Under the pieces are notes generated by a model. It was given only the letters and a program-made list of their open reading frames with translations. It searched no databases and was not told the origin of the DNA. Shown piece after piece: positions 26,301 to 58,177 of a stretch of DNA of 64,000 bases. Every line of letters begins with the position of its first letter. Positions within the stretch are counted from its first letter, which is position 1. Source of the DNA: Amoebophrya sp. A120 (taxonomy: Eukaryota; Protista; Dinoflagellata); assembly GCA_905178155.1 (NCBI GenBank), contig CAJINV010000008.1, positions 3,621,420 to 3,685,419 on the forward strand, read 5' to 3'. Made by a program: the position numbers and the translations under genes.

Positions 26301-27609
26301 AGTAGACTTGCGATGTTTATTTACACGGCATGAATATCATGGATACAACTGACAAATTTTTTATCGGCCGGCATTGCCATCTAAGTAGAGTTGAATGTTG
26401 ACATTGACAACGAAATCTCTTCCAGAACGAGCACGACGGAAGAAGTTTAACAATGAAATCTCTCCCATTTTTCATCCCGCACCACAGATCTTCTTGTCCT
26501 CGAGATTTGTCGCATGACAGACACGACAGATTTTCGATGCATAGCGGAACACCGGGGACAACAACCGAAACGCGAAACGGAAGAAGAAGAAAAACTTCTC
26601 GATGAATTACGTCCACGAAGTTGTGCGGAAGGGAAAAAAGTGTCCAGTCTACTTTTGCGGGAGCTACGAACCTATCGAAAGGAAAAATCCCCCCTCCCCA
26701 TATCAAAACGGAATTTCTAATGCTGGATTTGTGTACACAAATCAGGTTTGTATTGCAGAGAGGCATTGCGGCCAGATCCCCAGGCTAGGTAGAGGCGTAG
26801 GGGTCTAGTTGTTCAGCATGGCAAACGGCTCAGCTTTAGTCCCAGCAGCATGACAAATCGCTTCCATAATGGGGTGGAAGCTTCTGCCCTTGTCTTCTTG
26901 CAAGACAGAGGTGATTTGTGACCTCAAATCAGCAACACAAATTTTCGGCAACATACCTTTTCGATATGGGGAGGGGGGATTTTTCCTTTTGATAGAACCG
27001 AAGGTGTGGCAACTGCCGGCCGAACTGCTGCGCGGGGCGCAGTTTGGGGATCTTTTCCCGGATATGCACTTTGCAAATAGTACGTTTTGGTCTGGGAAGG
27101 TGATGCTATATTTTGGACGAAGAGGAAGATCGGTCTTGCATGAAAAGCACAACAGAGAGCCGTTTTTTTTCGGGATTTCTCATGCAGGGCAAGAACTAGA
27201 TTCAGATCCAGATCCAGAATTCATGTAAATCAAGATTCTATAATGAAAATGTTGCATGCTAGACCTTCTTCTGGATCATCCACCAAGTGGATAACAAGAG
27301 CCTGCAAGCATTGTTCCAGACGCAGACACATTTGCACTGGATACCGGAGTACGTTGCGAAGCGGTGGAGACTATCCACTACAAAAGAATTGTCCTCGTAG
27401 TAATTGCAGACATGCAGCGTAATAAATAAGTCTTCTTTATTCGTCCAACTCCAAGGTAGAACTATAGCTGCATGACAAATCCAATTGTTCACGCTGGGAA
27501 TTTTTTGTATATGCAGTTTATACGAGCACAATGCTTTTGCACCGCATAGAGAAGGCGAGCGCTTTCGTCCGGGACGATCGAGCATGAAGTAGAGGAGAAA
27601 TCACGCTGA
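17392..27609 (+). CDS. ~1970-aa putative secretory-pathway glycosyltransferase with a GT31 (C1GalT/Fringe-like) domain broken by long insertions; 17 exons
   Basis: Removing 16 introners (4305 nt) gives 5913 nt in one open frame. Hydrophobic N-terminus. C1GalT-like motifs appear in order: VACFSLIT..ETVAPHCDEFLFF, FLQKW, DWYCFLESDVYFIPENFKRY..YDP..LFLG, GSCLSRRA, HD..VQACLFDIGV..DSLGR, PICFH. The start codon is uncertain (17392 or 17428). Confidence 0.75.
17875..18185. mobile_element. Introner, family A; DR TGCTG/TGCTG
   Basis: TATGC..TGTCTGGGCCTGGA...TCCAAACCCAGACA..AATA. Joins QML|CLQ. Confidence 0.85.
18326..18591. mobile_element. Introner, family A (inverted relative to 24876 and 48681); DR TCCAT/TCCAC
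   Basis: TATGCATTGCAAACATGTCTGGGTCTG...CAGACCCAGACATATTTGCACTGCATA. Joins VIH|CFA. Confidence 0.9.
18664..18948. mobile_element. Introner, degenerate (family A-like); DR CAGTT/CAGCC
   Basis: TACGCATG...GCATTCGATA with internal TTTGTCATGC. Joins ESS|LVSS. Confidence 0.7.
19154..19303. mobile_element. Introner, family B; DR AGTTG/AGTTG
   Basis: TATGCACTGCAAAAGTAT...ATACGTTTGCACAGGATG, 150 bp. Joins LEL|KTY. Confidence 0.85.
19472..19771. mobile_element. Introner, family A; DR CTGGA/CTGGA
   Basis: TATCAACTGCAAATGTTTCTGAGTCTGGAAG...CCAGACACGTTGCAATGCATA. Joins YW|SWFEK. Confidence 0.85.
19791..19997. mobile_element. Introner, family E; DR AGAAG/AGAAG
   Basis: TATCCCACGAAAAAAGTGTTACAGTTACACATT...AATGTGTAACTGCAACACTTTTTTCTCACGATA. 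Confidence 0.9.
20070..20288. mobile_element. Introner, family D; DR GTTGT/GTTGT
   Basis: TATGAGAGTGCACAACTCC...GGAGTTTTGCACTCTTATA. Joins GL|YETQ. Confidence 0.9.
20405..20622. mobile_element. Introner, family A; DR TCCCA/TCCCA
   Basis: TATCGGATGCACAAATGTTTGGTTCTGGAAA...TTTCCAGACCCAGACATCTTTGCATTAGATA. Joins VIP|KHP. Confidence 0.9.
20822..21225. mobile_element. Introner, family C (inverted relative to 12650); DR ACCCG/ATGCG
   Basis: Perfect 20-bp TIR TATCCTGTGTAAAAACGTCC. Joins AD(P/A)|YGTFW into ORF 21261. Confidence 0.9.
22405..22627. mobile_element. Introner, family E (degenerate); DR CGAGT/CAAGT
   Basis: TAATGCGAGAAAAAAG...CTTTTTTTCTTGGATA. Contains an in-frame stop. Confidence 0.7.
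23245..23500. mobile_element. Decayed introner coinciding with a canonical GT-AG intron (23244-23504); DR AAAGG/CAAGG
   Basis: TATCCAAT...ATTGCATA ends and a residual TTGCTCGTTGTACTAG / CTAGTGCAAGAGCAA inverted match. Confidence 0.7.
24876..25154. mobile_element. Introner, family A; DR AGGCC/AGGCC (a GC-AG register exists, 24873-25156)
   Basis: TIR core TGTCTGGGTCTGGAAGA. Colinear with 48681-48942 over its full length. Confidence 0.95.
26217..26543. mobile_element. Introner; DR GCGGA/GCGGA
   Basis: TATGCACCGCAAAT...ATTTTCGATGCATA. Joins IVR|NTGD. Confidence 0.85.
26673..26994. mobile_element. Introner, family F; DR GAACC/GAACC
   Basis: 32-bp TIR TATCrAAAGGAAAAATCCCCCCTCCCCATATC with 1 mismatch. 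Confidence 0.95.
27063..27343. mobile_element. Introner, family A; DR CCGGA/CCGGA
   Basis: TATGCACTTTGCAAAT..GGTCTGG...CCAGACGCAGACACATTTGCACTGGATA. Joins FPE|YVAK. Confidence 0.85.
27372..27548. mobile_element. Introner, family B-like; DR GAGAC/GAGAA
   Basis: TATCCACTACAAAAGAATTGTCCTCGT...ACGAGCACAATGCTTTTGCACCGCATA. Confidence 0.85.
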
Positions 27610-34615: not shown

Positions 34616-37600
34616 ATGAGCGCTGCTTCTGCGAGTGCAGCAAAGAAGGACCAGGAGCTCCTCGCCTCGGAAGCTGGAGGTGGGAACAAGAACACGACGT
34701 CAAAAGCGCAAAGCAAGCAACTTGCAGCTTTTGTTCCGCGTGGTGCAGGGGGAAAAAATGCTGGCAAGTCCAAGGGAGCTGCCTCGTCCATCGCGGCTTC
34801 TCTGGTTGCGAAAGCTGTCAAAAAGCAGCCCTCGTCGAAGAAGAATAGCCGAGATGCCAGTGCCTCGAAGATGAAGATGAAGAAGATGAGTGGCGCTGCT
34901 GCTGTACCTGGTGCAGCAGCTGTCAGTATGGTGGACCACGAAACGTTGCACGTCGACAGCACCTCCCAAGACGCTGGCGTTTTGTTGAGGAGCGGTTCTT
35001 TGTATCGCGGAGGACCACGACCACCACAAATGAAGAATTCTTCGAGGGCTAGCACAGCAGGCGGAACAATTGCAAATGTTTCCGCACCAGGGGCAGGGTC
35101 TGCCCTGAGTTCTTGTCTGCCAAAAAAGAACTACGTGGGTCCCGGTCGGGAAATAAAGGCTCAAGCTAGTGCAGCAGCGTCTTCTTCTAGAAACAAGCGG
35201 CGCAGTTCGCTGAATAAAGAAACAAGTGCTCCTTTTGGGAGTGCTTTCAGCCTGCTGCCCGGGGCGAAGAAAGGGAAGAACGAGCAACAAGTGGGGATCC
35301 TGAATGGCAAAAATAAAAGCGCGTCGCTACCACTAGGCTGCAAGCAAAGTATTCGCGGGACAGCTGCACGAGATTCATTTTGCGATTGGAACAGTAGAGG
35401 GAAGGACGTGAAAAAGGCCACCAGGGGCGAAGATCGAAATCAAGCAGGTCAAAAAAAAGCGTCGTCCACCACGAGCATCAAAACTACTTCGGAGCAGGAT
35501 CTTCGTACGAAGCAGGAGAAGGAACAAGATTGTTCCCCGTCGCTTTTGCAACAAATCATCCACGAGGAAGAGGACGAGGACGAAATTTTCAACAATCTGA
35601 AGAAAAAGAAGGTGAAAAAGTCGACGTCTGCTCTTGACATTGGAACCTCGTCCCCTTCGGCCTTGTCTACTTCTTGGGCGGAAAGTCAAAGTAAAACGGA
35701 TAACAAAAAGGCAACCACAGGTGACACGCTGTTGACTTCGATGGCTATTAAAATAAAGGGATCACGACCGAAACCGAATCCGAAGTCCACCAGTCTGGGG
35801 GAAAGTACAACGAGCAGGCTGAAGTTGAAGTCCGAAAGAACTAGTGGTACACGACGAGGAGGACCCGAAAACGAACTGAATCGCCTTTCCACAGCGGAAC
35901 AAGTGGACGAGGACCAAGCTCTCATGGAGGATTTTGCGGGTGCTTTTTTTCCGCCGGATAAAAGTTGCAGCTCTGCTGCTGCTCCTTCTTCGTCGGGTCG
36001 TAGCTCGTTTTTAGCAAAGAATACCACGACGTCCACCAGCAGCACTTCGAAAGGTGAACCGGCTTTATTGAAGGGCGCGACCGATAAAACAAACACGACG
36101 GATGTAGTTCACCTTGTTAGTCGTCCTGCTAGCAACAAAACTAAACTGCCGATCATGTCGACAATTTCCTGCTCGAGCTCATCGCACCTGTTGACTGGCG
36201 CCAACAAGGATTCTGCTAGGGTGGGGCCACGTGGTGCTCTTGCTGGCAGCAAGTGTTCTGCTGGTGCTTCGGCTCTCGACGTCCCGGGTGGATCTGAAGA
36301 TTCGATTTTCTCGCGACTCCCGGGCTTTGCAGCCACTTTCGGTTTTGAAGCGCGCAAGACGAACAGTCTCAATGTGAAATCCATTTTGACAACGTCACAC
36401 AACAAAGTTGGCTCGGCCGACGGCGCGGGTGGAACTACGCAGAAGCTGCAGCCGCCTTTGACTAAGAAGAAAGTCAGCTTCAATATCACCCCCAAGCATG
36501 GCGACCAGATTGATGACGATGATGATGATGACGATGTCGATGATGATGTTGGTCATAACACACTGGCGGAGATGAAGAGCAGCAAAAAGAGCCAGATTCT
36601 CACTCTGTTGGCGAAGAAACGCGAAGAGAAGAATATGCCAACCAAGGGCATTAGCTTCTCTACTTCTACGACCGCCAGTGGCGCTTGCTCGAGCAACTGG
36701 AAAAATGCCTCTAATAATAAAAGATCAGATCACGACCGCCAGAGCAAGCTCGTGTTTGGTCCAGCTGGAGAATTCTCGGAGCCTGTTGGAACAACCAGCC
36801 AAGACAAGGAGACACCGCTGCCACCATTCGTCCCTCTGCCAACATCTTTTGTTTCGAAGCAAATACTACACAAGAACCATAAATCGCTTGCTCTTGTGCT
36901 GACCAAGAACAGCAAAGCTGCAAAAGCCACGACGTCGTCGTTACTCACGTCCACCTCGAAAACTGCTGCCAGCACTGCTTCTAGCAAAGCTCAGCAAGAA
37001 CTGCGTAGACAGCGAAGAACTGTACCCCCGCACAGAAATTCCAATTTGTAGCAGGAAGGATCAATTACAATTATTCAATGGACGATGGTGATGATACGAA
37101 AACACCATCGGGTCCGCACTCAATGGAATTTAGAAGCTGCACTAAATTAGGCGGAGCGAATTCTAATTTTTGTTTTTCATCGGTTTGATGTGTATCGGTC
37201 CTCGAACATGAAGATTCGGGACTGAAGCTAGGTTGCAAGTTGCGCATGATCGGAGCAGGGTTCTAAAGAAAATAAATAGGAGTCAGCAACATTGACATCG
37301 TGACAACTGGGGGGCGGGGGTATGATTGCATTGCATATTGCACTTGCTACGCACCGGATTGTCTAGCTCGAGCGACGAAGAGGATGACTACGACATGGGG
37401 AACCCGATTATGACATGGAAAAGTGGTAACCACGTCAACGGAAAAATTTGTGATGCAGCAGTGCATGAGACTGAATTAGAATTAGGCACGCGTTTGTATT
37501 GAGTGCAATACATACTTGTATCATGCGCGATGGCACTCAATTCCGCAAAATCCAAAGAAATCGTTAACGTTAACACTTTTTTGTTTGATGCCGACAATCA

Positions 37601-39341
37601 TTCGTTGTGCGGAGTGCAAAATGTTCGAGGCTTTATGACGGTGCACAACTCCCTCTCATTCTCGTTGTCCCACCGCTCATCCCTTGATCAGAGGCATGAG
37701 TAAAAACAGCCATACTTGCACACGAACGCGCAAATGTAGTGTCTGCATGACAAATCCATGCGCGGAGCCTAGTACTGGAATCTGCTTTAGAGAATTGGAG
37801 TTTGCGAGCAAACCATCGTGCCGAAACTGGCAAACGCCAGTGGTGAAGATGACATCAAATGAGGGGACTTCTAGAAGAGCAGGGGGTTCTTGTCTGCACC
37901 GTTATAGGCCCTGCAGCAGATGGCAAAGCAGAAACGGGCAAGGGCAAAATTGCGGAAGAGCAGAAGTGCCACGACAGCAGCCGGCTCAACTACGGCGAAA
38001 CATCAACTGCTAGAACCGCACGGAGGAAAGCAAGCCAGTCTCCTTGGAGGGAAAAGCAGTGCAGGTGGAGTTCCTCCTCGTAGTTCTTCTGCCGTTGGAA
38101 CTACAAGCAAGGCCAAGGTTTCTCTACTTCTCGGTATTAACAAAAAGGAGCTAGCACCTCCTGGACCACCGCTTGGGGTTGCAGCAAGTTCCTCGAATAA
38201 AACAAGTAAATCGACAGCGGTGGCGGCGTCCTCATCATCCTCGTCCGCCAGCAAGCTCGCGACCTCTTCGGTTTTGTTCTCTTCGAGCAAAGTACACGGG
38301 GAGAAGATGAAAACGAGTGTCGCTGCGGCCATGAAGATGTACGAAGATGATTTTTCTTCCTCCTCCGAGTTCGATTCCGACGAGGAGGATTTCCACCATG
38401 ATCCTGCGCTTGCGGACGGACTACACTTACGAAGAACGACGCAACATTTGTATGGAGCTGCTGGTGCACGTGCAGGAGGTGCTGCAGTTACGGCAGGCGA
38501 CTATTCTTCCTCGGACGAATCATTTTCATCTCCGCACTGCATCTTTTGCCGCTCGCCTATGGCGTTCTCAACTGTTACATTCTCATGTGTTACATGAACT
38601 TGTGACGCAAGAATCGGAAAAGTGCAAAGGGGAAGGCTGCACCTGTAGCATTACAAATTCCGCACAGATTTAGGCGCGGTTTAGGCCTTCACAAATTTGT
38701 CATGCGGAGCAGCTTGATCGTGAGGATGATGATGCGGCTTTTGCATGACAAATTCATGTAAGAACAGTTCAGAATGTAACAATTGAGAATCCCATATCGC
38801 CGAACACAACGCGACAAGACACGGTGCTCGACTTCGGAGAGCTCAGCTTGAGCGATTATGAACTGCAAAAGTATCGCACTCGTATAAATGCATTACAAAT
38901 TGCCTCAGCATGAGAAATAAAATTTGTAATGCTGATTTGCCTTCAGAGGAAAATTTGTGATGCAAGACTTGCATTTATAAGAGTACGATGCTTTTGCACA
39001 GGATAGCGATATGCATTCGACAAATTGATTCTACGTCTGGATCTGAAAGAATTTAATATGCAAGTGATGGCGGAGCAGGAGCACATGTACAGAAATTTGT
39101 GATTGCATGTTGAGGATCGCCAAAATTTATCCATTTCCTGTGACCTAAGAAATAAAAATACCCATTCTTTGCTGGTCATGCGGGACAGGCATCAAGACCA
39201 AGACGCCCCCTGAGCAAGACGTGTGAAGATGCCTCTGCGTCGTGCATTCCTCCAGAAGATCCCGGTGATGGAGATGCATGACAAACATATGCATCCATCC
39301 AGACCCAGACATATTTGCAGTGGATAAGCGAGGATATTTGA
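34616..39341 (+). CDS. Ser/Lys-rich low-complexity protein (~1073 aa) with two isolated CxxC motifs
   Basis: ATG at 34616 in CCACCATG. A probable GT-AG intron at 37048-37366 plus five introners link ORF 34454 to ORF 37920 and end at LSEDI*. Spliced length 3222 nt. The first junction is the least certain. Confidence 0.6.
37409..37590. mobile_element. Introner, family E; DR CCGAT/CCGAC
   Basis: TATGACATGGAAAAGTGGTAAC...GTTAACACTTTTTTGTTTGATG. Confidence 0.8.
37634..37906. mobile_element. Introner, family D; DR GGCTT/GGCCC (GC-AG register 37630-37907)
   Basis: TATGACGGTGCA...TGCACCGTTATA. Joins MFE|ALQQM. Confidence 0.85.
38558..38796. mobile_element. Introner, family G; DR TCGCC/TCGCC
   Basis: TATGGCGTTCTCAACTGTTACATTCT...AGAATGTAACAATTGAGAATCCCATA. 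Confidence 0.9.
38857..39005. mobile_element. Introner, family B, inserted into the left terminus of the next element; DR GCGAT/GCGAT
   Basis: TATGAACTGCAAAAGTATCGCACTC...GAGTACGATGCTTTTGCACAGGATA, 149 bp. Confidence 0.9.
39010..39326. mobile_element. Introner, family A; DR AGCGA/AGCGA
   Basis: TATGCATT..GTCTGGATCTG...CCAGACCCAGACATATTTGCAGTGGATA. Confidence 0.85.
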
Positions 39342-41533
39342 TTTATTTCAGAGAAGCAGGCAGAGGCCGACCCCGACGGAAGAAGAAGAAACACTTTTTT
39401 TTCTGGCTATTCCTGATTGAGCGTGCAGTTGATATATGAATATCATGTATTTATTTATTCGTTGTGGATGAAATGCAAATGTGACACGGCCGCAGAAAGA
39501 GAAACAAAGGCAGCCGCAGTCGATTGTTCATTGTGGCTGTGGCAAAGCACAATAAGACGAGCTGATTTCTTTTTTTTTCCTGCTCGCCCCAAGTATTACT
39601 CTTCTTCTTTTATATTGCGAATTATGAATTTTGCGAAATAGAGTTGTGCGACGGCATTTCTCTTCTTACGCACGACAAAGAAATAGAGGCTCTTCGTCCT
39701 CTGAATTTATAGCCGACATTTTTGGTAGGAAGTCTAGTGGCTGCACTGCTTTTGTGTAATTTTGAAAGTTTTGTGACAAAGGTGCAACAATATAATCAAT
39801 GAGCAAAGCAAGAGCGAGGCCGTTTCGCAGCGATAGCTGACAGCTGGCGCAGCTATATCGTTGCTGTTTGCATCTGGTGGAAGTACTAGGGTAATTTCTA
39901 CTTCTATCATAGGACTTCACTTCAGGTACTCTCGACTGCGTCAGCCGGTAGTGAAAGACCAGGGCTGGGGGAAAAAATGCGAACGTAGGGCAGCAGTTTT
40001 CAGTCCGAGAAGTACTAGTAGAAATGCGACGTTGGTTGACAGATAGTCACATCATCTCGATGTAGTTGAAGAGAAGATGTTGATCCAAAGTAGATCTACG
40101 AAAGAATATTATCGGTTGGATTATTAAGCTCCCGGCCGTAGTTCTTGGAAAAATCAAAGAGCAAAAAATCTCTTTCTTTTTTTGCGTCGGGGAAGTTTAA
40201 ACGAAGCCAAACAGAAACAGACGAAGATCGCAAGATGGTCGCCGTGCTTCACATAGAAGATAGAGATGGCTCATCTCGGGAGCAATGTCTTGCCATGTGA
40301 AAACTATTAAACGAACTCAAAAAACCGCTTCGTAAATATCGGTATTATGATTTAATTTTTGCTTGACCTCATCGACTCGTCGTGTTCCTCTCTGCTCTTC
40401 AATATCGCAATGTGACGAGGATGTTTATTGTCTGGGAACTCACTACGAAAATTAGTTCATCTTCCGGTTCCCCCGTCGTCCTAGTGAGGGGCTCCATCTT
40501 CTCATTTTGTTCCGGGTTGAGGTGTGAAGGTGAACAAAAGTCTTGTAGTAACGACACGCTGGCTCGTCAGGGGGGAGTTTGGATAGGCGATTATACTGAC
40601 TGATGTTGTTGGTAGTTATCGGCTGTTGAATACGCCTGTAGCTGTACTGTCAGTGCCACGTGTGGGAGCACTAGAATAAAACGCGGGGAGGGACGGCACT
40701 TGCTAGTTTACTGATGCAGAGACGTAAGATTGATACTCATTTAGGAAAAAGAACTACACGACGGGTCGGCTGTTCCCCCACACTAATAAATAATTAGGTA
40801 CACAGTAATATTTCAGTTTTGGTTCGTGTCCGAGCATCGATTTTGAAGATGAAGATATTAAAAAACTCGTAGGCTTGTGACTTTTTTTGGAAGCAGAGGT
40901 AGGAATGTGACGGCAGGGCAACTTGTAATAATCTGTGTAAGAACTTGGCTTTCTACGCAAATCTATCATGCAAAATTGAAGTTTCAGTTTGCTGTTCGCC
41001 TTTCCTCGTCCGCAAACGCCTATCTATCTTTCTTTACCATTGTCAGTCTACATGTTTGTTTCGGGACCACGAAGTTGTTTTGACAGCTCAGATTATCACT
41101 CCAGCTTTATTTCAGCAACACCTGTACAAAAAAGCTTGCCACTCGTTTCTCCTGTACCTACTTCACTGTACTTTATTCTTTTCGATCCTAACGTTGGCTC
41201 GCTGTATTCGTGGATTTTAAGTTTTACAATGTAGTTTTTTTTATACATATACTTCTTAGGTTGAATTTGATTGTTGATTCCATTCTCATGTTGTATACCA
41301 TTCCATTGCCACCTCGCGCCAGAGCAAAGTTATAGCAAACATTTTTGTCATCGCAAAGATTGAAGAACAAAGCAAACTTTTTGTGACCTTGAAAAATATT
41401 CCAGTTCTTAAGTCTGTGCCTGACTGATATAATATCAACAGGAGGTGGAGGTCCCGTTGTAATTTCTCAGAGATATTAAACGTAAACTAAAGACAGTACT
41501 GTCTAACAGCGAAGGTAAGGTCAAAAACGAACC

Positions 41534-43252
41534 ATGGGCGCTCTTTCGAAGGCAAAGCTGCAGGCCAGCAAGGCGAAGAGTTCTTGTTCTTCGAGTTCGC
41601 AGCAAAACACGAAGAGACAGCGTAAGGAGGTGAGGAAGCAGGAAATGTGCGTTGAATGCGGCGAGTACGTGTCTGATTTGAAGCAGCACCTCCAGCAGAG
41701 ACACGGCCACGTGTGTCCGTTCTGCAACAAGCGGTTCGGCAACAAACTCGGGTGGCACAACCACGTCCGTGACTACCACAAAGCGAACCCCAAGCAGCTT
41801 GCGAAAGCCAAAATCGACGATTGGCTGTTGAGTAACGAAAGGAGTAGAAGTTGCGGCAAGAACCTCCTGCTCTGCCCAAAAGTGTCCAACTCCTCCTCAA
41901 ACGGCAGAAACTCATCTTCTTCTAAAATGCTATCCCGCAACAACTCTACCGGCTCGGCAGGGTCTGCTGCGGAGGACCAGTACCGCCGCGGACGCAACAT
42001 GATGATGTCCTCCACGCAAGGCGGCTCGACTGGTAAAAAGAGACGAAGTTTGAGTTGCGGCGACAAGATGAACGGGGCGGGAACGAACATGGTGCAAGAT
42101 GAAAATCGCGACAATAATTACAGCTCCAGGACCACCTCCTCGCTCTTCGGCGCTGCACCATCGTCGCCAAGTAGTAGAACTGGTGCAAGGGCGGGACCTT
42201 CTCATCCATCACATCCTGATCAACATCTGAGAGGCGGTGCTGGAGGCGGTTCATCATCATCCTCGTCCAACATGATCAGTGCCGGTCGGAACAAGGAGAA
42301 CAAGAAACCCCCGGGCGGCAGGCAGCGGAGGAAGCTCACCCGGCAAGCGTCTGTTTTCTGTCAGTACGCCAACACAGTCGGCGCGGAGTCCGGGGAGGAC
42401 AGCAACAGCTTCGTCAGGCAACAGGTGAAGAGAGAAAACCTGTACAACGGGTCGGCGACGACCGGGGCGGGTTCATCGTGTGCCTCTTCCTCCAGTTCGG
42501 CAAGAATCTTCAGTACAACCGACCAAACGCAGCAAGGCCCGCTCTTCCGCGCAGCGACCACGGGCGGCGTAGTTGGGAACAGTACTTCTTTTGACGCGTT
42601 TCATTCTCGAGGTGGAGCCACGCAAGGACCGATGTTTCCGCTGCAAGGAAACAACTTCCTGCACCCGAACTCGCTCTCCGGCCCTCCAATGAAATACTAC
42701 CCCAATAACCCTCCTCCGGCTGGCACGGTGAACCTGCTAGATCCGCCAGACTTACAGCAACTGTTTGGCGCGGCGGGGAGCTCCTTCAACCAGGGCGGCG
42801 CGTTTGGCACAGGAGGTGCTGGCGCAGCAAACAACCTCCAGCATGCCGGGGTGATCACGCCGAAAAGTACGACGAGTTGTCACTTTATGCAGGATACGGA
42901 GTTCTTCTCGCAGCAAAGTCACGGTTGCAGTTCGAGCAGTGGGATTTCCTCTAAACTTCTGCGCTCTGTCTCCGCCGGCTGCCCTTCGAGTTGTACCACC
43001 ACCACGACCAGCTCGCTATTCGAACAGTGCTTGAGCTCTGCTACTCGCTCGCACATTGGCAACGTGGTGGAGGAGGAGTTGTCGAATGGCAGCTTGTTTT
43101 TGCAGCACACGCGGTCCGTCGAGGGCAGCTACACTTCCTTTCCGGCGGCCGGGGGATCATCTGCAGGAGGAGCGGGTTATGATACCACGACCGGGTCGTT
43201 TGCACCTGCTGGGGGCACTAGTAGTGCGGGAGCTCCTCCAGCACTACTCTAA
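41534..43252 (+). CDS. C2H2 zinc-finger protein, 572 aa, single exon
   Basis: CVECGEYVSDLKQHLQQRH and CPFCNKRFGNKLGWHNHVRDYH, followed by an S/G-rich tail. Confidence 0.85.
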   Translation: MGALSKAKLQASKAKSSCSSSSQQNTKRQRKEVRKQEMCVECGEYVSDLKQHLQQRHGHVCPFCNKRFGNKLGWHNHVRDYHKANPKQLAKAKIDDWLLSNERSRSCGKNLLLCPKVSNSSSNGRNSSSSKMLSRNNSTGSAGSAAEDQYRRGRNMMMSSTQGGSTGKKRRSLSCGDKMNGAGTNMVQDENRDNNYSSRTTSSLFGAAPSSPSSRTGARAGPSHPSHPDQHLRGGAGGGSSSSSSNMISAGRNKENKKPPGGRQRRKLTRQASVFCQYANTVGAESGEDSNSFVRQQVKRENLYNGSATTGAGSSCASSSSSARIFSTTDQTQQGPLFRAATTGGVVGNSTSFDAFHSRGGATQGPMFPLQGNNFLHPNSLSGPPMKYYPNNPPPAGTVNLLDPPDLQQLFGAAGSSFNQGGAFGTGGAGAANNLQHAGVITPKSTTSCHFMQDTEFFSQQSHGCSSSSGISSKLLRSVSAGCPSSCTTTTTSSLFEQCLSSATRSHIGNVVEEELSNGSLFLQHTRSVEGSYTSFPAAGGSSAGGAGYDTTTGSFAPAGGTSSAGAPPALL

Positions 43253-46405: not shown

Positions 46406-49073
46406 ATGGCGAGTCCTTCGGGTACCGGTGGTGGCACTGGTACCCCCAGTAGCACTTCCTCTTCCGCCAACGGCGCGAAATCCAAGATGGCGTTAAAACA
46501 GGGGCGGGAGCAGGAGCAGAACCAGAGCGACCGTCCAGAACCCCCGCCGTCCTCGGCATCCTCCTCCACAGCCTCCACGCCGAGCAGGAGCAAAGAGACC
46601 TCGGGCGTCAAATCTTCGTGGTGCCCCCCGCGGTTCAGCTCGGTGTCCGACAATGAGGTGGAGGGCAACATCTACATGCACAACCCAAAGGCCCTGCCAA
46701 TACGGATGATCAACTGGTACCAGGTGTTTCAGACGCACTATTTGTCCCACATCTACATCGCGGTCATCGCGTTTCTCATCTACTTCGCGCCCAATGAGCT
46801 CTTCTTCGTCAGCGAGCTGGGGTACAAAGCCGTGGAAACCTTTGGATGGGTATAAAATAAATAGAAATCTTCAAAATTTGGTTTCAGATAGTCAACATCT
46901 GGATTTTTTTTCCCACTCGGATTCTCAATGTAGTTCGTTGTGATTTAGAATTTTCCATGAATGTAGTAATGATGCGCAACAGAAGATCATGCAGATGCAC
47001 CAAAGAAGTATGTTGGTGCTCTCGCGAACCAACGATTGTGCACTCTCGTGGGTTGTCAAACGGCCACTTTTTCTGTACTCAATTGATCTTTAGTACATTC
47101 ATGAATGTAAATGTTGCTGTCAAAATAAAAATCCACAGTCCCGCGTCGTTTTGGTCGTCCTGCTGCCCTTGATCCTCTACCGTTCTTCTTCGTGGGGCCC
47201 ACATTGGCGCAGCAGTGTCTATTTGATCGACTTCGAGTGTGCGGCACCCCCCGAGGATTGGCGCATGACGGTGGAGCAGACGAAGAAGATGCTGGAGAAC
47301 CAGAGAAGTTTTACAGACGAGTCAAAAGAGTTCCAGCACCGGATTCTGAATACCTCCGGTATCGGCGACGGTACCGCCTGGCCGCCCTGCATCTTGAATT
47401 CCCTCGGCGGGAAATCTGTCGCGACGAGCCGCAGCGACAGTAAAACTTCCGCCTCCTCCGGTGGGTCACTGTACGAGTACGCGAGTACGATGCAAGACGC
47501 GAGGGATGAAACCGAGACCATCGTGTTCGACATGGTGGAACGACTCCTCGCGAGGACAAAAACAAAAGCGAAAAACATCGACTTTCTCGTCGTCAATTGC
47601 TCGCTCTTCTGCCCGACACCGTCGATCTGCGCCATGATTGCGAACAAGTTCAAAATGAAGGAGGACATCAACAGCTTCAATCTGGGCGGCATGGGCTGCT
47701 CCGCCGGGGTCATCAGCATCGACTTGGCGAAGCAGCTGATACAAAACAAACCTGGGGCAACGGCGCTGGTGGTCAGCACCGAAAACCTGTCACAGAATCT
47801 GTACGTTGATATAGATCTACACGTCTTGTTTGACTACTAGTATACTTATGTTCTTGTTCAACAACACAGAGGGTCAAGTTCAAGATCCAGCTCCATGATG
47901 ACTGTTCTTTTTCAGTTGTCACTCTCACTTTCACCAGGACATTGCCGCAAACCTAATATCATGATACAACTCATCAAAGGCAAAACAATAAAAAAAAACA
48001 GTTACACGGGTAACGATCGTTCGATGATGATGCAGAACACGCTTTTCCGTTGCGGTGGCGCCGCGGTTCTGCTTTCGAGCAACAGCTACAACTACAACAC
48101 GAAGCGATTTGCAAAGTACAAACTCCTTCACAGCGGCCGCACCTTCATGACGGACGACGAAAGTTTCAAATGTGTCTACCAGGAGGAAGACAATCTGCCG
48201 AGTAAAGTTGCAAGCTGTATTGCTAGTACAACAAGAACAGAAGGTGAAGGAACAAAAGCAGAAATATCCAAAGCACAGTCAGCGACAAATAACAATATAA
48301 AACCCGCAGCCGCGGCGCCGTCAGGGGATCTGAAGGGCGTCCGTCTGCAGCGAAACATCGTGACCGTCGCTGGGCGCGCACTGACGAAGCAATTCACGCA
48401 GCTCGGCCCGAACATCTTGCCGGTCAGCGAGCAGGCGAAGACGATCGGCACCATGGTCGCGGACTACCTGTGCAAGAATTTTTTGCACATTTTGTCCCCC
48501 AAACACTTCCCGCCGCGGGTAAAGATCTACACGCCGAACTTCAAGAAGTGCATCGACCACTTTTGCATCCACGCGGGCGGCCGGGCGGTCATCGAGGGCG
48601 TGCAGAAGAACCTGAAGCTAACGGATCGGGACGTCGAGCCGTCCTTCATGACGCTGAAGAAGTGGGGCAACACGAGCAGCTATCAAATGTAAAAATGTCT
48701 GGGTCTGGAAGAATGCGCGATTTGTCATGCAGCTTTTCCATGACCCATGAAGCCTGGAATGCAGGATCTAGCATGACAGATTCTGCGCGATCTCTCTCAT
48801 GCCTATCCTGCATGACAAACTCCCTCCCGACTTGGCCAAAACTGGACCACATTTGGTAATCATGCAGCACAGATTTTTGCATGCTTCAGATTTAGCATGA
48901 CAAGTTGCATTCTTCCAGACCCAGACATTTTTACATTTGATAGCAGCTCCTCCATCTGGTACGAGCTGCAGTTCATCGAGGACTCGAAGCGCATAAAACA
49001 CGGCCACCAGGTTCTGCAGATCGCCTTCGGCTCCGGGTTCAAGTGCAACTCCGCGGTCTGGCTCAGACTGTAG
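46406..49073 (+). CDS. KCS: 3-ketoacyl-CoA synthase (FAE1/KCS-type fatty acid elongase condensing enzyme); exons 46406-46849, 47139-47800, 48002-48680, 48948-49073
   Basis: [22 protein letters not shown] (catalytic Cys), [53 protein letters not shown]. Confidence 0.95.
48681..48942. mobile_element. Introner, family A, youngest-looking copy; DR GCAGC/GCAGC
   Basis: Perfect 36-bp TIR TATCAAATGTAAAAATGTCTGGGTCTGGAAGAATGC. Interrupts the conserved GNTSS|SSIWYEL motif. Confidence 0.97.
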
Positions 49074-50581: not shown

Positions 50582-53500
50582 ATGATGCCGGGCTCCTTGT
50601 TTTCTACTCAAGTGCAGGAGCACCAGAAGCTGCTGTCCGCGTTATCGAGGCTGTCGAAGAATAATCCGCCTAGCGAAGATCATGCGCTACTCGAGGCACT
50701 AGATGCACTCGCAGAAGTCGCGAAGAGCTGGGACCGGGTTGTAGCCACGCACAAATCTTCATCTTCTGCCTCTACCACGTCGAGAGAGCAGCGCGATGTT
50801 GGAAATAAAATCAGCTCGAGCCACAAAACGAAGAGCAAACTCGCGCAGCTGTGGTACTCTACGGTTAGTGCCGTGCTCGCGATGAACACAACAAGTGGAG
50901 ATCAGCAGAGCACTGCTTCGTCCAGCGCAGCAGGGTCGGCAACGTCTTCGTCTTCATCTCATTGCAATAAAGCTTTTTCCGCCACCAGGACTAGTACACT
51001 GTCACCTGTTACAAAAACACGACAGCACGTTGCTCAGTGTTGCTGGCGCATCTGGCGAGCAACGACATTTCTCGACTTTCGCGAGGCGACGAGCGCAGGT
51101 TGTTCCTTTGGCGAACTCCAGCTGGTTGCGGCCTGCAAGATTCTGAACGCAACTGCAAATCATGGAAGTGACGTATTTTTGAGGAGCCATCATTTTCCTG
51201 ATGAGGCCGCTGATCATGCTCTGGACGAAGGTGGTGCAGCGAGCAAGGCTGATGGGGTAGGCGTTCCTCGACATGAAGCGCAGATCGCTTCGAAATTGCT
51301 TGATCTCGTCCGGTCCTTTGTGGACGGCGGAATGAACGCCGCACAAGCGCCGGATGTGCAGACCGGTAGTACCAAAGCGCCGTCCTCCCTGATGAAATTA
51401 CCAGCATTGTGGTCTTCGCTGTTTCGCCTTGCGAGAAATCTGGCGTGCAACGCCGCACCGGCCGTTGGTGAGGAGATGGAGGACACGACAAGGCAGAGCG
51501 CTTCAGCTAGTTCGTGGTCTTCATCACAGCGAGCGTGCGCGCAGCAGAGTCATACGGTTGCGGACGGTCCTGATTCATCTAGGTCTCTACGGATGGAACA
51601 AGATCTCCTCGACGTTTTCCACGCTTGCTGTCTCGCTGTTTACGACTCAGCTTCCTGCGAGAAAACCGTCACGGCACTCGTTTCGTCCATCGGTAGTAAT
51701 ATTGCGATCGAACCCGGACGAGTTCTGAAAGAGGAACTTGCCACGCGGTTGCTCCTTTCGCTCACGTCAAATTGCAAGCCTGCCGTGTTGCACCACCGAC
51801 TCTGCATGTGCCTCGCACTGCCTCCGGCGCAAGCGTTGCGTGCGCACCAAAGACCGCACGGCTTCCGTGAACATGGCGGAATGAATGAAGCTTCCTCGAA
51901 GGTACTACGACTGAGCGCTTGGGACCTGCTGCTGTTGCACGAAGCTTCTTCATGCGCACAAATGTTCGAAACAGGTACGGGTACTCATAGTACCTCCACC
52001 TCGGCTGCTGGTTTGTGGGCCAGACGAGAAGTAGGGCAGCTAACTGCAGAAGCCGACGGGAAAACTGCACCGACCGTGCTCCACACAGCTGTGCGAACCA
52101 CCTGTGAACAGACTACCATAACTCCCGAATTGCTGCATTGGTTCGTTCTTCACCGACTCGACCAGGTGCCCACTCGCAAAGTCTGTTTACTGCTCGAGTT
52201 CGCCGACCGCCTGGAAGTACGAGAGACAGAGGACTCTATGGTCGACTCGAATTCTCAGCAGAAAGAAAGCAACGGGACATCACGAACATCAAGTGTAACA
52301 ACTTCTATCGGCGTTGCGAAATCTCACTTTCTGGCGTCCATTGTCGAAAAGGTTTTGGCTGCACAGCGTGATCCACACCAAACCGAACTAAGAAGTGGCG
52401 CTGGCGGGGGAGATGTTGATGTTCGGGTTGATCACGGAGAAGTAAATGTAGGCGAAGGCTGCACCGACGAGCTGCTGCGGCTCTCGGTCGAGAAGTTTTG
52501 CCAACAAACACCAACCTCCCTCATTTCGCAGCAGCACTGGTGCCGCGTGTTGCACGCGGTGCGACGGAAAGTGCAAAGTGCCACGACCTGTGCAGCAAGC
52601 ACGGGCGGTGGAGCAGTTGTTGCGTCGGCTGCCGTCGCGAGAACCCCTTTGCGTGGCTGCTCGTCGCCGTCAAAGCCAGGTGTTTTTAAAAATGGGACAT
52701 CTTCAACATCTTCAGGCGGCGACCATCTTCTACCTGCTCCCGTTGCGTCGATGTTGCTGTCTACTCTAGAGAATTACGCGGAGCGAATCGACCAAATCAT
52801 CCCGAATGTCTTCGAGATGAAATCTACGTCATTGCCGGAAGCCGTCGCGTGTGCGTATTTGGCAGTTGTTACGAAAGGTGTGCTTGTGTGCTCGCACGTG
52901 GCGGGAACGAACTCGAACGCACCAGCAGAGGTCCTCGCGCTCAACAGCAATGAAGAAGCGGCCGACAGAAGAACCTCCTCGTCGGAGATACAACAGGAGT
53001 GTCCTCGGAGGGGACGAGCACAAGCATCAAACACTCCAACTGTTGATGAAAACGGTCTACTTGGAGCTCACGTTCACGCCATCGAAGTGATCGCCGCGAA
53101 ATACTGCGAGTCCGCCTACGCCCGAAACGACGAGTCCCGCGGCGTTTCCCTCGGGCGGGCGCTAGCGTTCTGGAAGATTTGCAATACTGATACGTCGACG
53201 GGACAACTCAATCCGTCCCTAATATCGTTGACGTCATCCGACGAGAGTTGTCGCCCACAACAAGAGTTTTCCTTTCCTCCTCTCTACCTGGTCCTTCGTG
53301 CGCACGCAGCGCTGAGCATCTTCGCGGGAGTCGATTTGGATCCGGAGAGGGCGAAAAGCGCGGAAAGCCTGGCTTTCAGGCATTGTCAGGAGGCTTTCGA
53401 GGGTTTTTTGACGAGAACGGGAACACCTGGAGTTTCTGCGCACGGCTTGGAAAATGATGGTGCAGAAGATGAGGACCAGACAAAGATGCGACCGCATCAA

Positions 53501-56500
53501 GAAGCGGAAGCGGTTTTGCAGCTGGTCGTAACTGTACTTGCCTTCCGCTGGGAGGACGAAGATGCAGATGTTCCTACTGGCGCTGAAAAAGCGAAAGGGG
53601 ACGAAGACACCGCCGCTCCAGGGGGAGCAGAAGCGGTTGCGAGTAGCACAAAAATTGCCACAGAGGACTGCAGGTCTTCTAATACGCGTAGGAGGAGCGG
53701 CATGTTGCAATTGTGTACGGAAGTTGCACAAGAGATTCTCAGAAGTACAACTTCACGCGAAGAGGAGAAGTCATCTGCGTTTTCAAGGGCAGAAGTAGGA
53801 GAAACGTCGAACTGCATCAAACCCCAGAAAATGAAGACCTTACCTCCGCGCGCTGCTGCGGCCATGCTTCTTGCGCGCCTCGGCGTTCAATGTTCCAGCC
53901 TCTGGGAAGATGTTTTCGCTTTGTTCGGGCTACCGTCGTGGGAAGCTGTGCGTCAAACGTTGGAAGAGCTGGAGGGGCAACTGCAGTGCATGCAAGGAAC
54001 ACATTCGAGCTCAAAGAACATATGTGACGAGGCCCCGGCGCATGTTGTCCAAATAGAGATGCGCAGTTTTGCACAAGACCTGGTCGCTGGTGGAAAGCTC
54101 GATCTGGCTGCAGTGGCGCTTTTGTCGGCACTCGTCTCGTCGGATAATCAAACGCAGACGTCGCTAACAAATGGGGGCGCAGTAGTTGCGTCTACTAGTA
54201 CGCTGTTGGAGGCCCTGCAAACCCTTGTAGAATTTGGTCGGCATAATTCACGGCAGGAGGTCTCCACCGAGCTGATTGTTGAAGATGCTAGGCGTGTTGG
54301 CCGAATCGATATGCTGCCAGCTCCCTGCTCCGCGAGTAGCAGTGGGAAGTGCAAGACGAGACGTGCAGTGATCGAGAAGGCGAAGTCGCTACTGCCTAAA
54401 GCCGTGGAGCATTTCTCAGTGGATCAACAGGCGTGTGCGTTGGGGGCTCCTCCTACCGGTTTCGACGCGGACACTTTCGAAAATGGTTTATCGCTTTTCC
54501 GCACTCTTGTGGCAGTATTGATTCTGGAGCACGATGACGATGGGGGACACAGGTGCGAACGCGGCGGGCAGCCCCAGTCTTCAAGTGCAAATCCGCTCAC
54601 TAGTACTAGTGCCCTGAACCAACACTCGTGTTACCAAAAGCTTAGTAATTTGTGGGAGGAGAGAGCTACAGAAGCACAAAGCGAGGCGCAACTATCTCAC
54701 ACGATCCTCGCTTTTTACCTTCACGAATTAGCGAAGCTTGCTACAGAGACTTGCTCTTTTGCCGCCGGGCTTGCGCTCAACTTGCAAGCCATGCAGGAGT
54801 TCGCGCAAGCAGTGCCTGAAATGGAGGAGAAGGTTGGAAGCGAATCGATCCGAGACGCGTTGTCTGCCAAGGTGTCCACTTTCCATTCACGACTCTCCAA
54901 GCGCTTCTCGCTCCTCGGCTGTGAGCTGCACTTTAGCATTGCATCCGGGTACGAAAAAGCGGGGCTAGGGAAGTGGGCTGAACACTGGCATGAGGCGGGG
55001 AAGAAATTTGCTGACTCGGGCGACAAAGTCTTGCTTGGGCAGTGGCAGAAGCGGTTTCAGGCTGCGTGTGTCGGGCCGCGTGCGCCGGATGTTAGCGCGG
55101 ACTTCTTAGCTGCCGCTGGTCAACAGCACACCTCGGTACCGGTGGGGCACGAAGACAGACCGGCTGCTGACATTTTTCCAGTACAATTGGGATTGACGCC
55201 AAAAGGACCTGCACTGAGACTGACAGAAGCGTCAGCGGAGAAAATTCTCTGCACTTTGCAGACTGTGTCCTCTGAGATCAAGAGGGTGAAGCTGGGATGC
55301 CGGGTGGGACGACGGTCATTCCCGTTCTTGCGGGGTGATTATTTGTCGGAAAATAGTGAGCAAGAGCACCAGAACGAGATTCCGCAGCGACTGACGCGGC
55401 TCGCGTATGAATTTCTCTCCGCGGTAGACTTGCTGAGCCTATCTGGAATCCGAACCGCGGCAATCTCCCTGACGCATTTCTTACACGATGTCATGGAGGA
55501 GACTGATTCTACTACGTCGGCGCATCTGGAACAACACCAAGAAAAAATTCGTACACCAGCACGGGAACCGCGCGTCCGTGCGCAGTGCCAACTAATCATC
55601 CAGTCCTTAGCACCTTTTTGCGCCTCCTCCCTCGGGTCAAGCATTTTGTTCGATGTGCGACGGCTGCAGCGGGTGCTCGCGGCGTCTTCTGCCGCGCGAC
55701 GCGTACCGTCTTGGGACAAAGTGATAGACAGATGGTTTCTGAATCCGAACCCCAAGAAGTCCCATGCCGATGGAGCAGTAGATGAAGCGTCGTGTCTTGA
55801 GCACGCGGAAGTGTACGTGCACCTAGCGAAGTTTGACGCCGGTCGTGCTGGCAAAGATCATTCCGGAGAAAAGCTGCCCGCCCAAGAGTTTCTGTACCTG
55901 ACACGACGCCAAGTTCTTGCGCAATGCGCCGAAGGGAGTGGCGGTTCCGCTGGCAATGTTGCTGAGCAGAATCATGTTTCTGCAGCTGCACCTGCAAGTG
56001 GAACAAGCAGCAAGACGCTTGGCGTTTGCCACCGCATTCCGATAGCCCAAGAAGACTCGCTAATCGAAAAAATCGACCAATTGCAGACTTTGTTGGAGCA
56101 AAATCGCAAGTCTGTGAAGGACCTGCAGAAGAAGATAGAGGACGAGGACATCTTTGGGGACGTCGCAATTGAAGACACACATGCGAAAGAGCGGAAGGAG
56201 ATTGAAGCCGAGTTCTGGCGCGACCGACGGGAATTCGACGAAAAATTGAAAAACTGGCTCCAAAGTTTCGAAGCCGTCGTGTCGAGCGAGGTTCTGGAAA
56301 GCGTGTTTGGCAAGCACGAAAGGACAGATCAAGAGCGAAAGACAGAAGAAAAGGCGACGTGCAGAATCGTACCTAGTCCAACGGTCTTCCTGTACCTGGA
56401 CCCGAACCTCGCGAATGTGCCATTCGAGCATCTTCCGACGCTGCGTGGCCGCCGAATCTCAAGGGCGCTCGCACCGAACATCCTGGTTGCCGCTATGGAG

Positions 56501-58177
56501 AAGTTTCAGGAGACGCTTGAAGCAAGTTTAAATGCGAAATCCCCAACGAAATCGCTGAAGCGTGCCAGAGAAGTAGGACAAGCCGTGAGGGTCGTGAGCG
56601 CCGAAAGGAATGGCAACGGCGGAAGAAGTGGTCAGGCCAGTCTTCCACAGCAGGAGTCGGAGGTCACCAGCGAACAACATTCTCGACGGGCTTTGAAGAT
56701 CCGTCGGACGAACCGCAGTGGCACAGACAGACAGAAGGACTTCTGTTTTTCGTCGGACGAAGGAGACGGAGACTCACTTTCGCGACAGTTGGAAGACAGG
56801 GATAATGATGAAGATGGAGCCGAGATGAAAAACGATTCCGCCAAGAACCTCCCAAACCCAATTGAATCGTCCGATTCCCCACCGCGGCCCATGGCGTGCA
56901 GCCCAGACAAACCCGCGGACCAGTTGTCGGCACCAAGGCATCATCAACCACATCGGTCTCCTGCCTCGGGCGTCCGCGCTCCGACCGCTCGGTTTCGCGA
57001 TGCGCAAGTGTCTTCGTTCAGGGTGTTTGAGGAAGACGACGTTGACCATGACCAGTTGATGTCAAGATCCGGAATGAAATTGAAAGCCAATGCTCCAGTC
57101 GTGTCCGAAAGAATCTCCGCGAAACTACAACTACAGCATCAAAATACTAAACTACAAACCGCTAGTTCTAGTACTTCTGTAGTAGATTCCGGTTTTTTTG
57201 TCTTGAACCCCACGAACGATGTTGGACTCGTGCACGACAAGAGCTTGCTCCCGGTGCTGAGACAGTTGCGTTGGAAGGGCGTGATTGGGAAAACGCCTTC
57301 GCGGAAGAAGCTGTTTCAGCTGATGTTGGAACGGGAAACCTTTCTCTTCTCCGGCCACTACGGGGGCGAGCAGTTTGTCAACGCCGAGCAGCTGGAACTC
57401 GGACTGCGAACGGAGGTGGGCGAGGTTCTAGCAGACAACAAGAACGAGCACTCTGGTGAGCAGGGACAGCATGCTGAAGCGCCGGCGGAGGACTCATTCT
57501 CACTGTCGGCGGTGAAAGTAAAGCTAAAGGAAAACACCACGGAAAATGCCGCTCGCGACATGAACCTGGAGGAATTTGTTTCCTCCAAGCTCGCCTCCTC
57601 GATGCTGATGGGTTGCTCGTCGACACGGCACTTCATGCACGGACTGAAAACTGCGCGTGCAACTCGTACAAATTTGTTCGTCACGCCGCCCACCGCGGTC
57701 GCGTCTGCCCGCGGAGGTCCTGGTGAATTGTGCACGGGAAGAACTACAAGAAGGCCAGCACAGACCGAAGTTGCGACGTCCTCGTCTACGGCACCAGCGC
57801 CGTTGGATTCGTTCGAACAAGAAGCTCTGTCGTGCGCGACTTCTGGTGTTTCTCGGCCAGGACTGACCGCGATGAAACCGCAACAACTGCCGACTCCAGT
57901 AGATTCCTTCGGCACACACTGTCACTACCTCATCGGCGGGTCGCCGTTTGTCGTCGGTTGCTTATGGGAAGTCTTGAATGGGGAGGTAGACAAATTTACG
58001 GCGAGAGTCCTGCAAGACTGGAAATTCTCGGGGACCAGGAAAAATGGAACATCAAGAACATCTTGTAGTAGCTCAGCAAGCTCTGATCTGCTTGCCTGTC
58101 TTGAGCGAAGCCGTAGCAAGTGCAAATTGGAGTTCTTGACTGGATGCGCAGTGGTGCACTACGGGATTCCTGTCTGA
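50582..58177 (+). CDS. ESP1: Separase (peptidase C50), ~2531 aa, uninterrupted ORF
   Basis: C-terminal motifs LYLDPNLANVPFEHLP, FFVLNPTND, FLFSGHYGGEQF (His), LMGCSS (Cys), VVGCLWEV..EVDKF, LTGCAVVHYGIPV. Confidence 0.92.
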   Translation: MMPGSLFSTQVQEHQKLLSALSRLSKNNPPSEDHALLEALDALAEVAKSWDRVVATHKSSSSASTTSREQRDVGNKISSSHKTKSKLAQLWYSTVSAVLAMNTTSGDQQSTASSSAAGSATSSSSSHCNKAFSATRTSTLSPVTKTRQHVAQCCWRIWRATTFLDFREATSAGCSFGELQLVAACKILNATANHGSDVFLRSHHFPDEAADHALDEGGAASKADGVGVPRHEAQIASKLLDLVRSFVDGGMNAAQAPDVQTGSTKAPSSLMKLPALWSSLFRLARNLACNAAPAVGEEMEDTTRQSASASSWSSSQRACAQQSHTVADGPDSSRSLRMEQDLLDVFHACCLAVYDSASCEKTVTALVSSIGSNIAIEPGRVLKEELATRLLLSLTSNCKPAVLHHRLCMCLALPPAQALRAHQRPHGFREHGGMNEASSKVLRLSAWDLLLLHEASSCAQMFETGTGTHSTSTSAAGLWARREVGQLTAEADGKTAPTVLHTAVRTTCEQTTITPELLHWFVLHRLDQVPTRKVCLLLEFADRLEVRETEDSMVDSNSQQKESNGTSRTSSVTTSIGVAKSHFLASIVEKVLAAQRDPHQTELRSGAGGGDVDVRVDHGEVNVGEGCTDELLRLSVEKFCQQTPTSLISQQHWCRVLHAVRRKVQSATTCAASTGGGAVVASAAVARTPLRGCSSPSKPGVFKNGTSSTSSGGDHLLPAPVASMLLSTLENYAERIDQIIPNVFEMKSTSLPEAVACAYLAVVTKGVLVCSHVAGTNSNAPAEVLALNSNEEAADRRTSSSEIQQECPRRGRAQASNTPTVDENGLLGAHVHAIEVIAAKYCESAYARNDESRGVSLGRALAFWKICNTDTSTGQLNPSLISLTSSDESCRPQQEFSFPPLYLVLRAHAALSIFAGVDLDPERAKSAESLAFRHCQEAFEGFLTRTGTPGVSAHGLENDGAEDEDQTKMRPHQEAEAVLQLVVTVLAFRWEDEDADVPTGAEKAKGDEDTAAPGGAEAVASSTKIATEDCRSSNTRRRSGMLQLCTEVAQEILRSTTSREEEKSSAFSRAEVGETSNCIKPQKMKTLPPRAAAAMLLARLGVQCSSLWEDVFALFGLPSWEAVRQTLEELEGQLQCMQGTHSSSKNICDEAPAHVVQIEMRSFAQDLVAGGKLDLAAVALLSALVSSDNQTQTSLTNGGAVVASTSTLLEALQTLVEFGRHNSRQEVSTELIVEDARRVGRIDMLPAPCSASSSGKCKTRRAVIEKAKSLLPKAVEHFSVDQQACALGAPPTGFDADTFENGLSLFRTLVAVLILEHDDDGGHRCERGGQPQSSSANPLTSTSALNQHSCYQKLSNLWEERATEAQSEAQLSHTILAFYLHELAKLATETCSFAAGLALNLQAMQEFAQAVPEMEEKVGSESIRDALSAKVSTFHSRLSKRFSLLGCELHFSIASGYEKAGLGKWAEHWHEAGKKFADSGDKVLLGQWQKRFQAACVGPRAPDVSADFLAAAGQQHTSVPVGHEDRPAADIFPVQLGLTPKGPALRLTEASAEKILCTLQTVSSEIKRVKLGCRVGRRSFPFLRGDYLSENSEQEHQNEIPQRLTRLAYEFLSAVDLLSLSGIRTAAISLTHFLHDVMEETDSTTSAHLEQHQEKIRTPAREPRVRAQCQLIIQSLAPFCASSLGSSILFDVRRLQRVLAASSAARRVPSWDKVIDRWFLNPNPKKSHADGAVDEASCLEHAEVYVHLAKFDAGRAGKDHSGEKLPAQEFLYLTRRQVLAQCAEGSGGSAGNVAEQNHVSAAAPASGTSSKTLGVCHRIPIAQEDSLIEKIDQLQTLLEQNRKSVKDLQKKIEDEDIFGDVAIEDTHAKERKEIEAEFWRDRREFDEKLKNWLQSFEAVVSSEVLESVFGKHERTDQERKTEEKATCRIVPSPTVFLYLDPNLANVPFEHLPTLRGRRISRALAPNILVAAMEKFQETLEASLNAKSPTKSLKRAREVGQAVRVVSAERNGNGGRSGQASLPQQESEVTSEQHSRRALKIRRTNRSGTDRQKDFCFSSDEGDGDSLSRQLEDRDNDEDGAEMKNDSAKNLPNPIESSDSPPRPMACSPDKPADQLSAPRHHQPHRSPASGVRAPTARFRDAQVSSFRVFEEDDVDHDQLMSRSGMKLKANAPVVSERISAKLQLQHQNTKLQTASSSTSVVDSGFFVLNPTNDVGLVHDKSLLPVLRQLRWKGVIGKTPSRKKLFQLMLERETFLFSGHYGGEQFVNAEQLELGLRTEVGEVLADNKNEHSGEQGQHAEAPAEDSFSLSAVKVKLKENTTENAARDMNLEEFVSSKLASSMLMGCSSTRHFMHGLKTARATRTNLFVTPPTAVASARGGPGELCTGRTTRRPAQTEVATSSSTAPAPLDSFEQEALSCATSGVSRPGLTAMKPQQLPTPVDSFGTHCHYLIGGSPFVVGCLWEVLNGEVDKFTARVLQDWKFSGTRKNGTSRTSCSSSASSDLLACLERSRSKCKLEFLTGCAVVHYGIPV

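Follow-up and report, generated by a model that had tools for sequence, protein, structure and literature searches.

Among the systems so far described, the closest to the locus considered here are the introners of Amoebophrya A120 (Farhat et al. 2021, PMC7789003), a marine parasite with genes rich in small introns that resemble transposons. The termini of these introners take the form TAT-7 nt-AAA with terminal inverted repeats, and they are bounded by 3-5 nt direct repeats at exon-intron boundaries with ends other than GT-AG. In the parts of that genome paper covered, the means by which introns without GT-AG ends are removed was left open and U1 snRNA was not detected; overlapping pairs and splicing order are undescribed in those same parts. 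A wider literature search, from the scope of which supplementary figures and subscription journals were likewise excluded, found no account of overlapping Amoebophrya introners: nested introners are absent by term from the portions covered of PMC7789003, PMC12130899, PMC11282704 and bioRxiv 2020.10.14.339549, and twintron is also absent from the main text of PMC7789003. Nested or merged introner elements have already been reported from Micromonas pusilla (Verhelst et al. 2013, PMC3879977), although, as described in the text of that paper, the Micromonas elements are spliceosomal with ordinary splice signals, whereas the A120 pair described below has non-canonical ends and overlaps by way of a target duplication.

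The pair comprises two elements, B and A, located four codons before the stop of a predicted gene within the 64-kb stretch of DNA that was analysed (the window). The relevant features are as follows, L001 denoting an orthologous stretch of a related lineage from a metagenome contig.

34616..39341, + strand: predicted host gene; once six elements are removed it has 1,067 codons, counted from the first ATG (inferred gene model)
37006..37590, + strand: two end-decayed elements of the host gene, 37006-37337 (starts TAG) and 37409-37590 (ends ATG), putative introns with the frame given by removal of element plus 5 nt
37634..37906, + strand: upstream introner D, for which the site in L001 is empty and clean, with a single 5-nt copy
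38558..38796, + strand: upstream introner C, repeat TCGCC, also in L001
38797..38855, + strand: short exon before the pair, 59/59 bases identical in L001
38851..38855, + strand: A target duplication, original left copy AGCGA; identical bases precede A in L001
38852..38856, + strand: B duplication, left copy GCGAT, made up of four A-repeat bases and a duplicate of A's first T
38857..39005, + strand: element B, an introner of 149 nt (TAT…ATA) whose terminal stem is strong, not in L001
39005..39010, + strand: shared junction, with the B right repeat at 39006-39010 and a perfect A left repeat at 39005-39009
39010..39326, + strand: element A, an introner of 317 nt (TAT…ATA) whose left inverted repeat is decayed, also in L001
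39327..39341, + strand: A repeat right copy and the last five codons including TGA; stop position the same in L001

The junction reads, in order, AGCGAT (38851-38856), B (38857-39005), GCGA (39006-39009), A (39010-39326) and AGCGA (39327-39331). Both elements begin with TAT and end with ATA, a gap of four bases lies between them, and each possesses perfect 5-nt direct repeats (GCGAT/GCGAT for B, AGCGA/AGCGA for A), the two sets of which overlap. This anatomy corresponds letter for letter to that recorded in a first-pass annotation of the locus, which had also recognised the B repeat as four nucleotides of the A repeat plus the first T of A, and had proposed a 5-bp target duplication, a proposal that is supported. 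The same annotation had regarded the pair as nested and twintron-like with zero exon between its members, and on both counts a correction is needed. The unspliced sequence contains a perfect left A repeat at 39005-39009, made up of the last A of B plus GCGA, so that the terminus and perfect repeat of A are contiguous (39005-39326); because the last base of B rebuilds the repeat of A, the ends of both elements are intact in unspliced RNA. The pair is overlapping instead of truly nested, and in every cut register the predicted introns share one base, the last of B being the first of A, which leaves an exon of -1 nt between them. Excision in silico of 154 and then 322 nt (476 nt in total) reproduced the previously forecast frame ending …LSEDI*, with TGA at 39339-39341. 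The pair is real; the family to which its elements belong is already known, and the arrangement is new.

Three other systems resemble the pair in part, as judged from the portions of the cited sources covered. In the [D1,2] stwintrons of Xylariales (PMC12403724) the inner element likewise separates the first base of the older element's end from the second, missplicing in a single step would leave exactly one base, and terminal RNA stems are present. However, the outer donor of a stwintron is broken, which forces the order of removal, whereas in the A120 pair the end of A is complete downstream of B and the order is unforced by sequence; the inner intron of a stwintron or twintron interrupts sequence needed for excision of the outer one, and B interrupts no such sequence of A. 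Zero-nucleotide recursive splicing (PMC13149111) also involves consecutive intron segments with no exon between and stepwise removal, but recursive sites are AG|GU sequences in very long introns used 5' to 3', whereas the A120 elements are short (476 nt in total), overlap by one base, and meet at a junction reading ATA-GCGA-TAT in which AG|GU is absent. The nonconventional introns of euglenids (PMC12501133, PMC11282704) are similar in having ends joined by base pairing and flanking repeats that blur the junction; by way of contrast, their terminal motif is CAG/CTG, they belong to another lineage, and cut geometry has been tested in euglenids and not in Amoebophrya.

Membership of the published family was assessed by scanning the window for TAT…ATA elements with inverted and direct repeats, five block shuffles serving as the control. 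The scan returned 24 calls compared with 1-2 per shuffle, and perfect repeats occurred in 0/5 shuffles. The set of 25 elements referred to throughout consisted of 22 of these 24 calls (40107 and 52856 being left out as chance-like) together with 17875, 37006 and 37409; perfect repeats were present in 15 of the 25, and also in 12008, 19154 and 27063, which stand outside that count; examples of mismatched repeats are those of 14492, 20822, 27372 and 37409. The terminus consensus for the window agrees with the published A120 motif (PMC7789003, as given in the parts covered), and relative to that motif (TAT, seven variable bases, A-run) B fits at both ends and A at the right end only, the left terminus of A being decayed (score 11.3 vs a median of 15.1). 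Relatives of B were located in the window at 14492-14641 (77% over the full length), 19154 and 27372, while the right end of A is matched by at least eight other window elements, the shared part being the terminal 30-55 nt. In termini, inverted repeats, 5-nt repeats, non-GT-AG ends and similar length, B and A are like the A120 introners in the text of Farhat et al. (PMC7789003).

Frames of 606 codons across five elements and of 941 codons across three stay open when each element is removed together with 5 nt, and both are broken when 4 or 6 nt are removed instead. The ketoacyl-CoA synthase (KCS) exon in the window had its best match in a protein bearing the name Amoebophrya sp. A120, identity being 100% over the first and last segments. 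This protein holds the junction peptide that results when element 48681-48942 is removed along with 5 nt, whereas those for +3, +4, +6 and +7 are absent from it. By the KCS match the organism is the one studied by Farhat et al. From the KCS junction peptide, the terminus motif and the element+5 frames it follows that the window elements are the introners of Farhat et al. (PMC7789003) and behave as introns; that B and A are themselves spliced would follow by analogy with these neighbours. Element 48681-48942 also has the most perfect ends of all (30/30 bases), and splits the conserved GNTSSSS of 3-ketoacyl-CoA synthase (PF08392), the named A120 protein being without the element.

The predicted host gene is low-complexity and contains four further elements besides the A/B pair, which ends it. 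Pfam gave no match in the two host exons scanned; an annotated protein with the exon of the pair was not found at 118-378 aa (sole match P0001), at 379-2000 aa, or among 50% representatives; exact look-up of 10 unspliced ORFs found 0/10, and an Atlas search returned no usable match. Elsewhere in the window, a 2,531-aa intronless ORF without an introner (50582-58174) is present in the protein collection, and its C-terminal part may be separase-like.

A search for further alleles confirmed 1/139 candidate stretches among metagenome contigs (L001), 0/86 among genome contigs and 0/9 among viral contigs, and terminal-motif scans gave 0 matches. L001 is ~4% diverged in exon and element sequence, and carries A (342 nt, 4.9% substitutions) and C, with B and D absent. 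The single 5-nt copy at its clean D site, the state that a MITE-like TIR element with target duplication should show when empty, constitutes direct evidence of target duplication in this introner family; no empty site for A was found, L001 being the single ortholog. The D left repeat in the window (37634-37906) differs from the L001 empty site (17-40) at positions 4-5, both of which changes would be synonymous, and D may be older than the L001 split and have been precisely lost in L001 thereafter.

At the B site L001 has one repeat copy plus three extra bases, located exactly at B's place and equal to B's first three; the extra bases being a multiple of three, the frame and the stop are preserved. 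The A-only allele for which a check had been recommended was met with in the sense that L001 has A without B, although the three extra bases are a possible loss scar. Two accounts stand at about even odds: that L001 is a B-loss allele in which a deletion across the hairpin, at a 2-base microhomology, left an in-frame scar, or that B was never in the L001 lineage and an unrelated 3-nt insertion arose at the same spot. These odds incorporate a prior that favours gains, set beside the frequency of 3-base extras in L001 (12 in 3,500 aligned bases, or about 1% for the B position). An assembly or amplification artefact is also a possible source of the L001 B-site state. Alignment of window 37907-41560 with L001 27-3537 revealed that 21/35 indels were exactly 3 nt and only 4 were of 1 nt; the 3-nt indels, most of them imperfect tandem copies, also occurred inside element A and between genes, and their excess may point to a coding frame that has gone unrecognised or to mutation of an unusual kind.

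A was very likely, though not provably, inserted first and B later. The target of B would have consisted of four bases from the duplication of A together with the first base of A itself; duplication of that target would have left the end of A complete on the downstream side of B, while the final A of B would have recreated A's repeat, leaving neither element broken. The order originally put forward is accordingly retained as likely, L001 having A without B, whereas the description of that order as fixed was too strong, the layout being nearly symmetric (A's repeat is equally readable as covering B's last base) and L001 perhaps bearing a B-loss scar. The mirror history, in which B came first, A was inserted one base inside B's right end, and the fifth repeat base was later substituted, is highly improbable. 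It profits from a layout that is symmetric but for one base, from the fact that position 5 is the repeat position most often mismatched (6/25 elements), and from the chance that L001 is a B-loss allele; but it requires one extra substitution, producing a left-T/right-G mismatch at position 5 that was seen in 0/25 elements (four of the six mismatches are T/C and none T/G), and this substitution must have preceded the L001 split. The base after A's right repeat is G in both lineages. The mirror history is also at odds with the decay of A's left end in both lineages (window and L001) while the B stem is intact, and with the presence in L001 of A alone. In the four T/C cases (14492, 18326, 37409 and 37634) the T is in the left copy and the C in the right, before the TAT terminus, a pattern which may represent a C-to-T bias on the intronic copy.

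Both elements were then removed in silico in all six cut registers within the repeat. Whether B preceded A or A preceded B, 476 nt were removed in 6/6 registers, and the protein end was identical for both orders in 5/6 registers, the sixth differing by one residue. With one base common to both predicted introns, two separate excisions have to follow one another; either element may go first, since the base lost in an excision has an identical counterpart in the other repeat copy, which stays behind. After removal of A the repeat of B is 4/5, with a mismatch at position 5, a state also present in 6/25 window elements. The reading preferred here, to which a probability of roughly one half is assigned on sequence and modelling, is that the pair is removed one element after the other, in either order and probably with B first, following A-then-B insertion via overlapping repeats. 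Each excision would swap the shared base for an identical copy from the other repeat, and the partner's boundary would thereby be rebuilt.

Folding predictions suggest which order is the easier. The B hairpin has z = -6.05, whereas the terminal stem of A (z = -0.74) is no better than shuffles; the predicted terminal pairs number 24.6 for B and 10.8 for A, the latter rising to 19.4 with B removed and standing at only 0.4 when A is folded alone with native flanks, and the predicted stem of A is one of the weakest among the 25 elements. The short strong hairpin of B would form first in transcription and so favour B-first removal, which the models suggest to be the easier route, a preference without a requirement. 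Of the B-then-A order initially predicted, this possible preference by folding is what survives; the obligatory two-step order is not supported, since A is uninterrupted in the pre-mRNA and the two orders remove the same 476 nt and give the same end in 5/6 registers.

An obligatory inside-out order of the stwintron kind, whereby A is unrecognised until B has been removed, is improbable. The stems are only four unpaired bases apart, each element's flank being the other's stem, and the gain in A's predicted terminal pairing from 10.8 to 19.4 once B is out lends such an order some plausibility; A would also be blocked if the machinery needs an unstructured exon upstream of the 5' cut. Nevertheless, the inverted repeat and perfect 5-nt repeat of A are present in unspliced RNA, A-first removal gives the right mRNA in silico, the interruption that defines a stwintron is missing, and an exon of ~14 nt between repeats occurs in the window (19771-19791).

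With regard to the register of the cut, the two mismatches that L001 polarises, at positions 4-5 of D's left copy and at position 2 of A's right copy, would both fall within the intron in registers 2-3 and in no others, a weak indication. The frequent NT-AN ends in Table S4 of PMC7789003 may result from aligner placement inside the repeat.

One further possibility is that B and A are removed together as a single composite intron, the left end of B pairing with the right end of A. The two ends match at 11/13 bases, above either element's own ends over that length, and the 15-nt duplex between them (-10.5 kcal/mol) compares favourably with those of B (-8.5 kcal/mol) and A (-4.9 kcal/mol); moreover, occasional one-step missplicing that leaves one base is reported for the [D1,2] stwintrons of fungi (PMC12403724, portions covered). 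However, when 40 nt are considered the duplex that B forms by itself is much the stronger (-36.7 vs -17.3 kcal/mol), and in the folding ensemble the cross-pairing amounts to 0.0 expected pairs compared with 24.6 for B, from which one-step removal is considered unlikely, albeit the least so of the alternatives to sequential removal. Its products would depend on how the cut is placed: a stem-measured cut would take 475 nt, with a frame shift and a 37-residue new end, and a cut guided by the outer AGCGA would take 476 nt. The single-step 476-nt skip named in the first-pass annotation as the contrary outcome must be amended to that extent, an outer-stem-measured one-step cut taking 475 nt.

It is also conceivable, though quite unlikely, that the pair is not efficiently spliced, the gene ending inside B (or inside A after B removal) with the remainder as 3' UTR. 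The site lies only four codons before the stop, the A stem is among the weakest predicted of the 25, and unspliced or half-spliced RNAs run into in-frame stops after 7-20 residues, ends which look harmless, so that selection for splicing is weak here; the original caveat that the nearby stop might allow incomplete splicing was in this respect right. Two points argue weakly in the other direction: the mid-ORF end-decayed elements would have to be removed to keep the frame, and L001, in which the number of extra bases is divisible by three, retains the stop and its frame.

As to how surprising the arrangement is, 25 elements inserted at random would be expected to produce 0.01-0.04 pairs offset by 1 nt in each window. 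For the whole genome the expectation is about 19 pairs at offset 1, or about 76 at offsets up to 4, as calculated from a total of 29,850 repeated introns and a coding length worked out from the intron density (PMC7789003, parts covered). The pair most likely arose by chance where insertions are dense, and has been tolerated at a place four codons from the stop. A mechanism directing insertion to element ends was considered and set aside as unnecessary, there being one case in 25 elements where chance gives tens per genome. It is a tentative proposition, somewhat short of an even chance, that the pair is one of a class (tens per genome) of overlapping introns with exon lengths of -1 to -4, excised sequentially in either order with boundaries rebuilt by the duplications, and that L001 represents introner loss by a hairpin-bracketing deletion with an in-frame 3-base scar.

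The value of the pair is as a test case for how non-canonical Amoebophrya introns are cut. In a single introner the junction is masked by the direct repeat, so that neither the cut position nor its determinant is revealed; the repeats of an overlapping pair are displaced from one another by one base, and rival mechanisms consequently differ in countable products (475 nt, 476 nt, -154 and -322). Should such a class of overlapping introns exist, the 475- versus 476-nt junctions and the intermediates would distinguish cut placement by stem distance from placement by direct repeat. The B/A pair is itself a weak example, adjoining as it does a stop codon, and mid-gene pairs would be stronger ones.

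Two minor features of the window elements were also recorded. In 37006-37337, 37409-37590, 12008-12208 and 19154-19303 the terminal TAT or ATA is mutated (TAG start, ATG end) with the repeats kept; since removal of 37006-37337 and 37409-37590, each with 5 nt, brings the host gene back into frame, splicing may be able to do without the terminal triplet. At 19771-19791 and 27343-27372 neighbouring introners are separated by very short exons, some 14-24 nt in length.
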